Shown: positions 51,001-63,000 of the stretch, piece by piece
Position numbering within the stretch: the stretch's first letter is position 1
Layout: each line of letters starts with the position of its first letter
Sequence record: KP682389
Length of the DNA stretch: 64,000 nt
From: Escherichia phage PA45
Direction: 5' to 3' (one strand)
Made by a program: the position numbers

Positions 51001-54000
51001 AAACAGATGGCGGCGCAACAGAAAGCGCAGAACAAGCAGAATATCGGTACGGGCATTGGTACGGGGGCGGCTATTGGCGCATCCGTTGGTGGTCCTGTTG
51101 GTGCTGTTGCTGGAGCAGTAATTGGCGGCATTGCTGGTTCTTTGTTTTAAGGAGTGGTGAATGAGCGGATTTGCACAGGGGTTACTTGCCGGATTCAGCA
51201 CCGTTGACCAGGCAATGACCCGTCGTAAGGAGCTTGGTCTGCGTGAAGCACAGCTTGCCCGGCAACAGAAAAATAACGAGCGCGATTTTGAGTTTGCGCA
51301 GTCTCAGTTTGAACATAATAAAAACGTTGATCAGCGGAACTTTGATTACAGAGCCAAAGTTGACGACCGTAATTATGCACTGAAGGAGAGGGAGTTTAAC
51401 GCTAACCAGAATTACCGGAATGCGTCACTGGGTATGGAGCAGCAGCGACTCCAGTTGCAGAAATACAACCAGCGACGGCTTGAGTATAACGATATGATTG
51501 CCCATAGCCAGCCACTAATGGAAGCGCTTGGAAAAGCAATTGAGGCTGGCGATCAGGAGGCTGCAACGCGTCTGTTCGGGCAGCTGCCAAAGGGACATCC
51601 ATTAATTCTTATGTCAAACGAAGGCTATGCAGCGAAAGCGGGTCAGGCCGTGATCAACCTGCAAAAAATCTTTGGTGATAAGCCGGACATGGCGATCGAT
51701 TCGCTGAATACCCCGGAAAATCTCGATGTGCTTTCCGGCGTGTTTGCCCCGGAACTACAACAGCGTATTGGCATGCCTGATTCAACCGGGGACAAAACGA
51801 TAAAAGAGGCCAGGATTGGCAGTATCGTACCAGCGCAGCAGGAAGGGTACGTACTTATTGGCCTTGATCTCACATACAGCGATGGCTCCACCGCGCATAA
51901 ACCTGTAACAGAATACGGCAGTGCGCACCCTGATGATCAAACCGTGCTGGCGATACCCGTTGATAAGGCTATCGCTCAGGTCAGGGATCGCAGCAAATTT
52001 GCAGAGATATCGAAAAATTATGGTTATTTTATGCCGAAGCAGCAGGGACTTTCTCTGAAAGAGCTTCAGAAGGGGGCCAGCAACGTAGCGGCGGACGCGA
52101 TCAAGAATGGCGGTAATGCTCAGGCTGCGGTGGATGAATATTATGCTGCGACTGGTTCACAACCGCATCAACAGAAAATTCAGCAACAAAAACTTCAGCA
52201 ACAGGTTATCAACTGGGCGGGAGATGATCCTGATAAGCTGTCATTTGCCAGAAATGTAGCGGCCCGTCAGCCTGAAATGCTGGAACCTCAGAATCAGAAA
52301 TTGCTGGAGAACGGGTATGCGAATTTTCTCCGTATTCAAAAGGCCAGGGGGGAACAGGCCAGAGATGAAAGTGCTTCATCTGCATCTCAGTTTATCCGTG
52401 GACTGAAACAGAATTACGCCCAGTAATTCACGATATTCCATTAATACCATTTCCTGATGCCCGGCCATTGTGCCGGGTTTTTTTATGGAGTCTGTATGGC
52501 CTATTCAGAGGAACAGCGTCCTGAGGCGCAACTCGGTAACCAGAATCGTAACAGCCTGAACATTCAGCAACCCGGCGAAACTGACAGCTATGAAGCATTT
52601 TTCTCTGATCCGAATCGCTGGAAGGATAACAGTACGTCGTTCAGCCTGGGCGATGTATTGCCAACAATGGGTAAAGGTTTCGCCCAGTCCGTCCGGGGAA
52701 CAGGGGAAATGGCCCGTGGACTCGGTGATGCGATGATTCAGAGCCCGGTAAAAACAGGGGCGCGTATTTTAAATGAGTTCAGCCGTATGGGGCTGCCGGG
52801 TGTCGCAACTGTGCAGGATATTTTTGCCGGTGGCAGCAGGGGGGCTGATGAGGTCATCGATACCCTGCCTGATGGCAAAAACGCGGTTACTGATACTGTC
52901 GGTAAAGGTCTGAAGGCAACCGGTAAGGCTGTCAGTGATGGTGCCAAAGCCACTGATGAATGGCTGACCGGTAAGATGTCGCCGGGTGCAGTTCGTGCGC
53001 TGAATACGCCGATGACCGAAGGCTATAATGATTCTGCGGTCTGGGTGGCGAAGGGTGTAAACCTGATTGGTGCGCTTGTACCTGATATGGTTGCTGGCGG
53101 TGTGGCTAGAAAGGTGGGTGATGTCACACTGCGAAAAATGCTGACCGCCGGGCTGGAGAAAAAATACATCGCGGCAGGGATGCAGCCGGAAAGAGCCACG
53201 GCACTGGCAGCAGAAGCTGTCGATAAAAAAATGCCGGATTTATTCCAGGCGGGCCTGATCACCCATTCCACTGTAAGTGCACAGGGGCAGAGTGCAATGG
53301 CGGCAGCAGATGCTGTTCTTAATGCTGATTACTCTGAGCTGGCGCAGTCACCGAAATTTCAGCAGACGTTTTTGTCCATTGACGCCGACCCGCAGCACGC
53401 ACAGCTTACTGATCGCCAGAAAATGGATCTGGCAAAAGAGCGTGTTGCCGATGAGGTGCGCGCGCAGCTGGCAACCGATCCTGAATTGCTGGCTGTGAAT
53501 GCCATGGCGGCAAAACTGGGTGACGCACAACTGTTTAATCTGGTGACACGAGGCACAGCGAAGACCGTTAAAAGCGGCATTGTCAGAAATGCCACGGAAC
53601 AGGGGGCGATTAATGCGGCGCAGGGCGGCTATTCACGCTATCAGGAAAACACGGCATTGCGTGAGACCGCCGGAATGGGTGTGTCACCGTGGGAGGGCGT
53701 GGCTGACGCAACGATCGAAGGTGCAGCCTTTGGTGCTGCGATGGGGGCTCCATTCGGTGCGGTTGCCGGATATCGTGGCAGACGTCAGGCCGCAGAAGAA
53801 ACCGCCATGCGTGATGCTGAAACCGTGCAGCAGGACGACGCAGCCCCGCAACCAGAATCTGTTGATCCGGTGGCGCAGCAGCGTGAATCCATGCAGGGCA
53901 TGAATCGCGAGCAGCTTCTGGAGCAGTATGCTGATGCGGATATGGCAACAGAGGGTGACGCATCCGCAGCTCATCGCCGGGAAGCTGCCAGCCAGTTGTT

Positions 54001-60000: not shown

Positions 60001-63000
60001 AGAGTACTGGAGTATTCCTCTGCCTTACGGGTACAACGTTTTCTTCCTGCTCGGGCATACTGCTGAAGGTGTGGCGGCGGGTGACCTGACGGCGTCCCGT
60101 GCTGCCGGTAATGTTGTTGGTGGTGTGCTTGGTGCATTCAGCCCGATTGGCAGTGAGACGTCGGAAACACTGTCCGGGGCATTGCTGAAAAATGCAGCGC
60201 CGACCATTCTGCGTCCGTTTGCGAACCTTGCCATGAATGAAAACTTCATGGGGGCGCAGATTTACCAGGAGAACATGCCGTTTGGTACACCAAAACCTGA
60301 CAGCCAGCTGGGAAGACGTTCAACGCCAGAAGCGTACAAGGCGTTTGCATCCTGGCTGAATGCGTTCTCAGGTGGCAGCCAGTACCGTCCCGGCGCGGTG
60401 GATATCACACCGGAATCGCTGAAATTCTGGATTGACTATATCTCCGGAGGGACAGGGCGCTTCATTTCCAAAACCACGGATGCGGCGGTGAAATCGCTGA
60501 ATGGTATTGATATACCGGAACAGCAGGTGCCCTTCCTGGGGAAAATTTCGGGGGAGGTGATGCCGTATGCAGACCAGCAGAAGATGTACGACCGGATGAC
60601 AGAGATTGCGCAGTATCACGCAGAGCTGAAGAGTCTGACCGGTGCAGAAAGAACGGCGTTCATTGACGAGAACAACGGAAAATTGTCGATGAACGGGCTT
60701 ATGCAGGATACCCGGAAGAGACTGAAGGATTTGCGTAAACAGCGTGATGCCATTTACGCCGACAGTACTCTCAGTCTGGCGCAACAGTCGGCGATGGTGA
60801 AATCGGTAGAGCGGGATATGAAAATTGCCGTGGATCGGTTTAACCGCGAGTACAACAAAAAAGTGGGAGTGGATTAACAGAAATGGCCCCGTACGGAAGT
60901 GCGGGGCTGATTAAGAAATAAACACTCATTGACCTGTAATAACCGGAGCTATTAACATATAGTCAGAAGAGCATTTCATGTGATACAGAGAGCCGATTTA
61001 TGTTTAATGAAGAAAAAGTTGCGCAAATGGCAGCGTATTTGCTGAAAAAGCATGGCGGATCTATGCGTTTCATTAAGCTGAAGCAGCAACGGTAATGGCG
61101 AATAGCATTTATGAGCAAAATAATCTTGATATGTTATTAGGCGATCTGATGTAACCGGGATGATGTTCACCCCTTATCGCCGGGGAACAATACCGGCAAT
61201 CAGAATTGCGGATGGAACTATTCAGGCCCACGATGATATCGATGAGGAGTTTTTTCAGCCAGTATTGGATGGCTTTCTTATATCCAAATATACGCCATTT
61301 GACATCCTCCACGCCCTGAAGGACGGGGTTTTACAGCGCACCGGATAAGATTCGGTGTTTTGTTGAAAAATACTGTGATAACAAACAGAAAACCCGTCAG
61401 TAAGACGGGCTTAGCAAGCTGGGACGGTTACTTTAATAATTTCAGTGCCTTTACATCCACTTCAACACTGCTCAGGTCTTTATCAATTTCACCCTCAATT
61501 CTTACTTTGTCTTTCGGAGAAACATTCTGCCCGGCCCATATGCTGTCATCGATATCCGTGACAATTGTCCCGCTATTGTCACGAAACTCATAACGTTCAT
61601 CACCCACTTTTTTAACGATGCTCCCTTCAAGGATAACCCATGCATCATCCTTCAGTTCTTTTGCCTGCGCTACTGTTGAACGCTCTGCTTCAGGCCCTTG
61701 GAAACCGCCCTGCTGTGCAAAAGCGCCAAAAGACACACCAGAAATAAGTGCTGCAATCAATACCTTTTTCATTCATAGTCCTCTTTCAGAGATGAACATT
61801 CAAACAGCATTTTCAGTATGGTAAAGCGCGGGTGCGTTGAGGATGCCTGACACATCAGAGGTGGCGGGAGATTACTCCCCCGCTTGGTCTCTTACTTCTC
61901 AGATTCGTAGTCTACGAAGACAGCGACCTCCGTCTGACCGGTTCGGATTCGCACCTCGCAGAGGTCTTTCCTCGTTACCAGTGCCGTCACTATGACGGTT
62001 AAACAGATGACGATCAGGGCGATTAACATCGCCTTTTGCTGCTTCATAGCCTGCTTCTCCTTGCCTTTCGGCACGTAAGAGGCTAACCTACATGTGTTCA
62101 GCATGGATTGAGCCTCAGATTAATGTTAAGCGTCTTGCCGGACGCGTAATGTTAACTGGGGCTTTTCTCTATCTGCCGTTGGTGTTCATGCCCGAGGCAG
62201 ATAGCCTCAAGCACCCGCAGCAATTCTACTTAACTCTCCTTTTCCCGCAAACCGTTTTTATCTCCAGCGACAAATCGAATACACAACCAGCACCACCGCC
62301 ATTACTGTTCCTACATTTGCGAATGCTTCAGGCCAGGTCATTGATTCACCTTCTGCTCAATATTTTTAAGGTCATTTTCCGCATACAGTATTGCAGTTCT
62401 TGCTGCCCGCAACCGTGCTTTGGTGTTCTTTTCTTCACGCTCGAGGCTGGCAACAGATTCTCGGAGCTGATCGTGTCTGTTATGAAGCTGTCTAATCTCT
62501 CTCACCACAGCCTCACCATCGTTCGCACACCGCAGAACATACTGAAAAGGGTCCACAACACATCCGCACTGCAAGCACAGGATAACGTGATCCTGTTCAT
62601 GAACCTCAATGGCCCGATGCTTACAGCTCTGTTGTGTGTAGTTTTTTCTGCCAGTTACTGTAATGTTCAGCAGCTTCTCTTCATCGCGCTTTGGCTGCAC
62701 CAGTGTGATGATATTATCGCCTTCATTTTCCATCAGTTCACCTCCTGCGGCGGTTCTGGTAGCGGCATCCAGTGTGACGGTTTCCACGACGCACCAGGAA
62801 TTATCCACCCATCATTAGCGTCAGGATGCCCCGGGATGTAAGTCGCCCACTTCATTCGCCAGTCACCTTTCCTGTCAAACTCCACGGCAACAAGAACGGC
62901 TGTTTTGGTATCCGGCATTCGCTCACTACAACTTATCCAACCATCCGGAGTTACCGGAGAGTTGCCAGACAGCGCATTCTGCAACCGTTCCAGCTTAACG

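Follow-up and report, generated by a model that had tools for sequence, protein, structure and literature searches.

The question raised by this locus is what kind of protein is encoded by the very large open reading frame (ORF) at the end of the late genes of Escherichia phage PA45, and whether the two HExxH motifs within it belong to peptidase domains. The window that was analysed is the whole 64,000-nucleotide stretch from sequence record KP682389. A first-pass annotation, made from the sequence alone, had described an uninterrupted frame of about 8.4 kb and 2793 codons at 52496-60877, and translation bore this out, giving a single open frame on the plus strand from the ATG at 52496 to the stop at 60877. 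In our judgement this ORF probably encodes a giant polyvalent virion protein of the 933W-like (Sepvirinae) Shiga toxin (Stx) podoviruses. The gene takes up about 13% of the Stx phage genome, and Stx phages disseminate the Shiga toxin genes. The parts of the protein are as follows (aa, amino acids; MPTase, metallopeptidase).

52496-60877, plus strand: giant ORF, 2793 aa, 308 kDa, with no cysteine
52883-53719, plus strand: conserved N-terminal region, Ala/Gly-rich (aa 130-408), 29% identical to the N-terminus of the Vibrio phage 1.205.O giant
53813-55195, plus strand: low-complexity linker (aa ~440-900), acidic and then Gly/Ala/Pro/Glu/Arg/Gln-rich, from composition per 100 aa
55205-56848, plus strand: module 1 (aa 904-1451), consisting of the leader IEDFGEEIKGAAKH, LPD5, a CLCA_X-type zincin core and LPD1, and ending at the junction FYSR
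55646-56095, plus strand: LPD5 (Pfam), aa 1051-1200, E 6.5e-45
56039-56806, plus strand: CLCA_X zincin domain, aa 1182-1437
56576-56815, plus strand: LPD1 (Pfam), aa 1361-1440, E 1e-23, the C-terminal helical half of the zincin domain
56849-57541, plus strand: module 2, a second zincin-like MPTase domain, of an HExxxH family, aa 1452-1682
57743-58012, plus strand: MuF_C (Pfam), aa 1750-1839, E 1.3e-17, profile positions 8-97 of 103
58142-60874, plus strand: conserved C-terminal module, aa 1883-2793, 101 kDa, common to the giants of other podoviruses
59921-60538, plus strand: LPD38 (Pfam), aa 2476-2681, E 7.6e-48

The four Pfam domains, LPD5, LPD1, MuF_C and LPD38, were all matched far above their cut-offs, and all four were defined in the study of polyvalent proteins by Iyer 2017 (PMC5512222), in which LPD38 was confined to polyvalent proteins of the phage type and MuF-C was predicted to be a PBECR RNase and not a metallopeptidase. 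Together with the two zincin-like domains, they bear out the earlier suggestion of a large polyvalent protein architecture. As in phage-type polyvalent proteins, several unrelated hallmark domains are joined in one huge polypeptide, and the gene lies among the late, virion genes. Matches in PHROGs were to families of unknown function only (phrog_37568 at aa 170-439, phrog_14770 and phrog_10691 in the C-terminal module), apart from a match to the "DarB-like" phrog_10089 that is limited to aa 2351-2681, the LPD38 region. The N-terminus had been described as Gly/Ala-rich, and residues 100-500 do contain 14-24 Ala and 7-14 Gly per 100 residues; a glycine-zipper-like segment with weak Gly-zipper matches (aa 407-425) lies right behind the N-terminal region. 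Of the Pro/Gln-rich low-complexity linker that had been proposed, the low complexity stood while the simple Pro/Gln character did not, as an acidic stretch comes first and several other residues abound in the remainder; Pfam searches on tiles (E<=10) gave no family matches between aa ~440 and 900.

Whether the product is a known virion protein of 933W-like phages had been left unsettled, and published work answers that it is. The gene is ORF80 (ECs1242) of Sp5, the VT2-Sakai phage, and its DNA is 100% identical over 8382 bases in VT2-Sakai (Sp5), the PA phages and many other Stx phages, while at an identity of at least 90% it occurs in 185 phage records. It is also the orthologue of the giant virion protein of phi24B, called gp47 in a recent preprint (bioRxiv 10.64898/2026.04.10.717836); the two are 93.7% identical in amino acids over the first 284 residues, the gene order is the same, and the upstream cassette of phi24B has 97.7% DNA identity to that of PA45. 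In 2016 Mondal (PMC5155283) deleted ORF80, an "unusually large protein" to which the same length of 2793 aa was given, and reported that the phage DNA was excised and packaged normally, that neither plaques nor lysogens were formed, and that the defect could be complemented. In the phi24B preprint gp47 was found in purified virions by proteomics, was not seen in the capsid or tail reconstruction, and was proposed to be an encapsidated ejection protein. Likewise, gp69 of phage JC1, an equivalently annotated and positioned giant, is virion-associated. Absence from virions combined with dispensability is therefore not what is found, since the phi24B orthologue is present in virions and the identical Sp5 protein is essential. 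Injection of the protein and a role against host defences are, here as in the literature, inferred from the family to which it belongs.

The relatives of the protein in other phages suggest how it is built. The giants of Vibrio phages 1.205.O and 1.232.O, Ralstonia phage GP4 and Bacillus phage Dartukuta were compared with it by BLASTP. The C-terminal ~910 aa are common to the Vibrio 1.205.O (41%), Dartukuta (32%) and GP4 (26%) giants, in blocks that start at aa 1871-1888, and the giants of Vibrio, GP4 and Dartukuta alike carry LPD38 at their C-terminal end. The N-terminal aa 130-408 are common to the Vibrio 1.205.O giant, and aa 904-1455 recur in Dartukuta as one block with 37% identity. The central domains vary from giant to giant, with methyltransferase, helicase, GNAT and ExoX-like domains in the Vibrio phages, SLT and LPD3 in GP4, and, in Dartukuta, ParB, InPase, ART and GNAT. 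Matches to the C-terminal module came from 352 phage records, 167 of them further records, and those listed were all phages of ~40-68 kb. Judging from these comparisons, the architecture is one of a conserved chassis (aa 130-408 and the ~910-aa C-terminal LPD38 module) that carries an exchangeable central cargo. Since the chassis parts are common to unrelated podoviruses, the chassis most likely serves to build the protein into the particle and to let it leave through the tail at infection. The predicted cargo of the Stx giant consists of LPD5, a CLCA_X-type gluzincin and LPD1 (aa 904-1451), an HExxxH zincin-like peptidase (aa 1452-1682) and the MuF-C/PBECR predicted RNase (aa ~1683-1882).

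Some close relatives differ within this central part. Giant variants in Salmonella enterica have an extra module of ~330 aa, named "phosphoribosyltransferase" by one source, which is inserted between LPD1 and the second peptidase domain and directly follows the FYSR junction, and other E. coli giant variants have a divergent MuF-C module; both are evidence of cargo swapping among close relatives. In Pectobacterium sp. S5 the homologue appears to be split over the adjacent genes QWJ20_10690 and QWJ20_10685, with the break between LPD1 and the second peptidase domain, and this is probably a decaying prophage. The SLT domain of the GP4 giant is an N-terminal lytic transglycosylase at aa 56-148; a recognisable cell-wall hydrolase is absent from the Stx giant.

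Two published guesses at function can be corrected from this map. An AAA+ ATPase (COG1483) was suggested by Mondal 2016, and this idea is unsupported, since the protein has no [AG]xxxxGK[ST] Walker A motif (P-loop) and no ATPase family was matched in Pfam, NCBIfam or PHROGs. The phi24B preprint speaks of a "MuF-C metallopeptidase", and here MuF-C is the predicted PBECR RNase and the zincins are the two HExxH modules upstream of it.

The two HExxH motifs had been reported to lie about 267 residues apart, and their exact positions were confirmed: HEWFH is at aa 1284-1288 (56345-56359), HEIIH at aa 1551-1555 (57146-57160), and the spacing is 267 residues. From the composition of the protein (37 His, 203 Glu) 0.036 HExxH motifs are expected, compared with the 2 observed, and in 5000 shuffles the probability of two or more was 0.0004. 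Pfam searches on ten tiles (E<=10) covered neither HExxH segment, leaving aa 1200-1360 as a gap at motif 1. The conserved elements around motif 1 are the following.

56282-56290, plus strand: H-Y-E (aa 1263-1265), on the strand before the active-site helix; H and Y conserved in at least 90%, E invariant
56345-56368, plus strand: motif 1, HEWFHSLD (aa 1284-1291); H, E, W and H invariant and D nearly invariant in a 58-sequence alignment (29-55% identity)
56618-56641, plus strand: E..AR.FE helix (E1375, E1382) within LPD1; invariant, a candidate third zinc ligand, helix 334-352 of the model

In this alignment H1284, E1285, W1286 and H1288 are the invariant residues and D1291 is conserved in at least 90%; other conserved stretches are G-A-R-G, A-H-Y-E and I-N-L-T, as well as N-D-Y-L after E1382 in LPD1. 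The NCBIfam model CLCA_X (NF041907) matched aa 1182-1437 with an E value of 2.1e-43 over profile positions 3-245 of 250. The score of 148.6 bits is that of a domain-level match and falls short of the 260 set for whole proteins in this model, since the domain here is part of a giant and its HExxH helix is separated from the Glu helix by an insert. CLCA_X was described by Lenart 2013 (PMC3650047) as a family of zincins akin to the CLCA protease domain, which cleaves itself, with members that are mostly borne by phages or plasmids, often in proteins of more than 1000 aa, and Table S2 of that study includes this exact protein (residues 1195-1467 in 2806-aa numbering). The family motif is written there as HExxHxxxD, whereas it reads HExxHxxD here. 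On sequence grounds the conservation around motif 1 matches a widespread clade of phage-type MPTases in Iyer 2017, which is marked by a conserved His where strand 2 ends and by an Asp three residues past HExxH. In the AlphaFold2 model of the motif 1 domain (predicted local distance difference test, pLDDT, 85) a helix and three strands are followed by the HExxH helix and the Glu helix, and this predicted fold, with its sheet, active-site helix and downstream Glu helix, is similar to known zincin structures.

A search with aa 1195-1441 matched 148 proteins, and many of these are standalone proteins of ~335 aa that are annotated with LPD5 and LPD1, span the whole segment, and have the N-terminal motif and the order of parts found in module 1. 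Since LPD5, the unannotated gap and LPD1 are conserved together, and since the CLCA_X model matches across them, the alignments indicate one zincin-centred module, whose LPD5, zincin core and LPD1 travel together as a unit. In metagenomic phage contigs, standalone LPD5-zincin-LPD1 genes were seen right after a GGACT / Amidoligase_2 / GATase_6 cluster and upstream of the terminase.

For motif 2 the only Pfam hint on the tiles was Peptidase_M76, with an E value of 0.076. Its conservation was followed in 76 domain copies that were extracted with a domain-only hidden Markov model (HMM) from clusters no more than 50% identical.

57146-57163, plus strand: motif 2, HEIIHH (aa 1551-1556); H, E and H invariant in 76 of 76 domain copies
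57314-57337, plus strand: E..A...E helix; E1607 in 76/76, A1610 in 72/76 and E1614 in 72/76; a candidate third ligand, helix 150-163 of the model

The usual form in this family is L-R-H-E-x-x-x-H-[HY]-G-L, that is, HExxxH, and in the Stx sub-branch a deletion of one residue turns HExxxH into HEIIHH, so that a His is available at both the HExxH and the HExxxH spacing. The reading of motif 2 as HExxH thus stands for the Stx copy and does not extend to the family, in which most relatives read HExxxH. A HExxxH variant was mentioned by Iyer 2017 for one set of polyvalent MPTases. By tblastn against phages, about 100 Vibrio phages were found to encode homologues of the motif 2 domain, with ~33% identity, within their giant genes. 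A word-indexed protein search found few relatives, mostly fragments and short proteins, and an exhaustive HMMER search, with a profile that included MuF-C as well as the motif 2 domain, found thousands of proteins, mostly of 1500-5400 aa (4760 representative clusters at E<=0.001). In many of these the motif 2 domain adjoins MuF-C, and the MPTase is often present in tandem or interspersed among other modules, as in one giant with copies at aa 982-1233 and 1235-1483. The AlphaFold2 model of the motif 2 domain (pLDDT 80) has the same core topology as that of motif 1, and its predicted fold is zincin-like. Alignment of the two domain alignments with hhalign was not significant (E 0.085) and covered only the strand-strand-HExxH helix part, so that no relationship between the two domains was detected outside the zincin core. 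When the whole protein and both domain profiles were run against Protein Data Bank sequences with phmmer and hmmsearch, nothing meaningful was matched.

Taken together, the invariant active-site motifs and the predicted zincin folds in both domains agree with the first-pass annotation, which had called the HExxH segments metallopeptidase-like, and the folds predicted for the two match zincin peptidases and not some other class. We therefore read both HExxH motifs as putative zinc-binding catalytic motifs of zincin-type peptidases, with zinc binding and catalysis inferred from alignments and models. Each would lie on an active-site helix after a sheet of three strands, and the third ligand would probably be the invariant Glu on a later helix. 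It could be argued that one or both motifs are due to chance or are degenerate, the domains being non-catalytic scaffolds, and the departure of the Stx motif 2 from its family by a one-residue deletion is in keeping with this. Nonetheless, the excess over the expected number of motifs given above, the invariant H, E, H and downstream Glu in alignments of 58 and 76 diverged sequences, and the fact that the deletion keeps a His at both possible positions make such an explanation scarcely credible. Residues E1285 and E1552 are concrete mutational targets in a system in which complementation of the ORF80 deletion already works.

If both domains are peptidases, the sequence between the modules is of interest as a substrate. 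A short motif, [FY]-S-[RKQ], recurs at the following boundaries.

56840-56848, plus strand: junction YSR, aa 1449-1451 (GVAFYSRKG), end of module 1
57533-57541, plus strand: junction YSR, aa 1680-1682 (ASFQYSRSG), in a low-confidence, flexible segment modelled at pLDDT <50
58133-58141, plus strand: junction YSR, aa 1880-1882 (GPYYSRTSS), start of the C-terminal module

The tripeptide YSR occurs four times in the giant protein (P 0.0006), three of these at module ends, and [FY]-S-[RKQ] is also found at aa 95 and 379. In 121 related giants the motif is 1.8-fold enriched and typically lies ~100 aa before and ~137 aa after HExxxH. The ends of homology blocks in three independent giants fall at this motif, and so does the start of the Salmonella insert; in the giants of Vibrio 1.205.O and Dartukuta it stands before the C-terminal module. 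No junction or cleavage motif was described by Iyer 2017, in which a self-processing role was proposed for polyvalent MPTases. From its distribution, [FY]-S-[RKQ] can be named a candidate site of processing, a reading in which our confidence is low to moderate. That it would be the recognition and cleavage site of the embedded zincins, which would make the giants true polyproteins, is a tentative proposal. If it were true, cleavage at maturation or after ejection would divide the Stx protein into pieces of ~159, 26, 23 and 101 kDa, and a sequence rule for module boundaries and released effectors would be at hand across thousands of proteins (the 4760 representative clusters).

In the mechanism that we propose, the cysteine-free giant would be packaged in the head and would leave through the tail with the DNA or ahead of it; its peptidase domains would cleave the polyprotein between modules, at exposed linkers that bear [FY]-S-[RKQ] (aa 1449, 1680 and 1880), and the freed modules might then act separately, each on a presumed target. 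The occurrence of tandem MPTase copies between other modules suits such processing. Several points weigh against this mechanism. The junction motif was not found before the C-terminal module of GP4, and its role could be structural, as part of a linker, and not that of a cleavage site. In Iyer 2017 it is pointed out that the N4 vRNAP, likewise MPTase-bearing, is packaged without processing, and the phi24B preprint is silent on whether gp47 was present as a full-length band or as fragments. Neither a strongly hydrophobic segment nor a convincing transmembrane helix was found, and with a best 19-mer Kyte-Doolittle mean of only 1.38, membrane insertion is not evident from the sequence. Finally, the heads of the Sp5 ORF80 deletion look normal and are filled with DNA, but do not bind anti-tail-fibre antibody, an effect that is not expected from the loss of a pure cargo protein.

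Mondal 2016 took the antibody result as a role in tail assembly, and on this view the giant would be mainly a tail-assembly or tail-structural factor, possibly energy-using, and not ejected cargo. The phi24B preprint can be brought in here also, since it describes diffuse unassigned density in the adaptor lumen of intact particles that is lost on ejection, and part of the giant could sit in the tail channel. On the other hand, the giant was not seen in the resolved phi24B tail, the failure to find a Walker A motif or ATPase family applies to this view too, and the set of domains is that of a polyvalent effector. The giant could both be ejected and stabilise the portal or tail, and we consider a purely tail-directed role unlikely; the antibody result instead suggests that the chassis also helps to complete or stabilise the tail, which is compatible with ejection.

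A different target for the peptidases must also be weighed against self-processing. Cleavage of host proteins was given by Iyer 2017 as one possible role of polyvalent MPTases, and the closest folds, lethal factor and the Pro-Pro endopeptidases, cut other proteins and not themselves; furthermore, the standalone LPD5-zincin-LPD1 proteins have nothing to self-process and are located among phage accessory genes. The HExxH domains might thus be effectors that cut host proteins of defence or of the envelope after injection, leaving the polyprotein itself intact. Set against this are the conserved junction motif that brackets the domains and the multiple or tandem MPTases between modules, and we hold the effector role to be possible though doubtful; it and self-processing are not mutually exclusive. 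In the phi24B preprint it was proposed instead that the metallopeptidase degrades peptidoglycan so that the ejection conduit can cross the cell wall, and a related giant, that of GP4, does bear a cell-wall enzyme in its N-terminal SLT transglycosylase. Since the nearest folds of the HExxH domains are protein endopeptidases and not cell-wall peptidases, this role appears very unlikely. Apart from the processing question, the chassis-plus-cargo layout together with the junction motif would, if confirmed, help to dissect similar giants in many podoviruses.

The surroundings of the gene agree in large part with the earlier description, which had placed the giant ORF at the close of the late operon and behind its own terminator.

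52459-52485, plus strand: intrinsic-terminator-like hairpin and T-run directly 5' of the giant gene, overlapping the alternative ATG at 52457

The giant gene is the last large one in the plus-strand late block and lies downstream of those for the portal, capsid and tail fibre; 3' of it there are only small ORFs and a terminator-like hairpin at 61338-61358 (plus strand), after which minus-strand genes follow. The terminator stem (52459-52478) has seven pairs, six of them G-C, and is followed by T7. The longest mechanical ORF opens 13 codons upstream and in frame, at the ATG at 52457 inside this hairpin, and that start was adopted in RefSeq for VT2-Sakai (2806 aa). The ATG at 52496 has GGAG six bases 5' of it and is the more plausible start of the two. 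The phi24B record also uses the hairpin ATG (a product of about 2806-2807 aa) and notes a "putative leader peptide" there.

Upstream of the terminator, three Gly/Gln-rich genes had been reported, but four were counted between 49709 and 52426, all of them cysteine-free and Ala/Gly/Gln-rich, and these form a cassette with the giant gene.

49709-50440, plus strand: first cassette gene
50443-50889, plus strand: second cassette gene
50899-51150, plus strand: third cassette gene
51161-52426, plus strand: fourth cassette gene

The four are homologous, pairwise and in order, to genes 16-19 of Vibrio phage 1.205.O, and with the giant gene as its last member they make up a conserved five-gene cassette. 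The fourth is ORF79 of Sp5, which is essential (Mondal 2016). The third, a Gly/Ala/Ile-rich gene of 83 aa with 44% identity to Vibrio phage gene 18, is called "bacteriocin" in RefSeq. In the phi24B preprint a "bacteriocin homolog" was found in virions and dismissed as a contaminant, its gene not being named; judging by annotation, it appears to be the product of 50899-51150. Since this gene is conserved inside the cassette, its product may be a genuine virion or ejection protein.

The absence of cysteine extends beyond the giant itself. None is found in its 2793 aa, in the four other podovirus giants, in N4 vRNAP or in the four upstream genes, whereas the other late proteins of the same phage contain 0.65% Cys (P about 1e-8 for the comparison with the cysteine-free giants). 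In 106 related giants the Cys content is 0.054%, again compared with 0.65% in other late proteins. The lack of cysteine fits unfolded passage through a narrow channel and the periplasm.

Much of this picture is already known: the gene, its essentiality, its virion location and its family have been published, the basic picture dates from 2013-2017, the zincin nature of motif 1 is in print, and motif 2 falls in an MPTase variant that was already described. The additions made here over the published record are minor ones, namely the exact module map, the unity of LPD5, zincin and LPD1, the HExxxH origin of motif 2, the junction motif, the lack of cysteines and the five-gene cassette.

Among named systems, ORF80 of Sp5, which is essential, and gp47 of phi24B, which is in virions, are the same gene and its orthologue. 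Like the polyvalent proteins of Iyer 2017, in whose main text this phage is not named, the Stx giant is a giant multi-domain protein encoded among virion genes and combines MPTase, MuF-C/PBECR, LPD1, LPD5 and LPD38 domains. In that work LPD5 and LPD1 were treated as separate domains of unknown function, whereas here they flank one zincin core. The giants annotated as "DarB-like antirestriction" proteins in Bcep22/JC1-like and GP4-like podoviruses share with it the C-terminal LPD38 module (26% over ~900 aa in GP4) and the position at the end of the virion gene block, but their cargo differs and only the chassis is common. An antirestriction protein of the P1 DarB type was considered for the Stx giant also; no methyltransferase or helicase domains were matched in it by Pfam and only the LPD38 chassis is shared, so that it is not a DarB homologue.

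The N4 vRNAP, gp50, offers a further likeness, being a giant of 3500 aa that is cysteine-free, packaged in the virion and, according to Iyer 2017, MPTase-bearing, and the same study states that it enters the host with the DNA. Unlike the Stx giant, gp50 is without LPD38 and has the vRNAP catalytic domains, none of which were found by Pfam in the Stx giant; BLASTP between the two was not significant, with a marginal N-terminal match (E 0.04) and a match to phrog_2206 at E 0.006. Anthrax lethal factor, the Pro-Pro endopeptidases and the MtfA-type gluzincins (M34, M90) have ~13% identity to the HExxH domains and no match at the sequence level, and the accessory subdomains of the lethal factor-type gluzincins differ from the LPD5 and LPD1 of the Stx giant.

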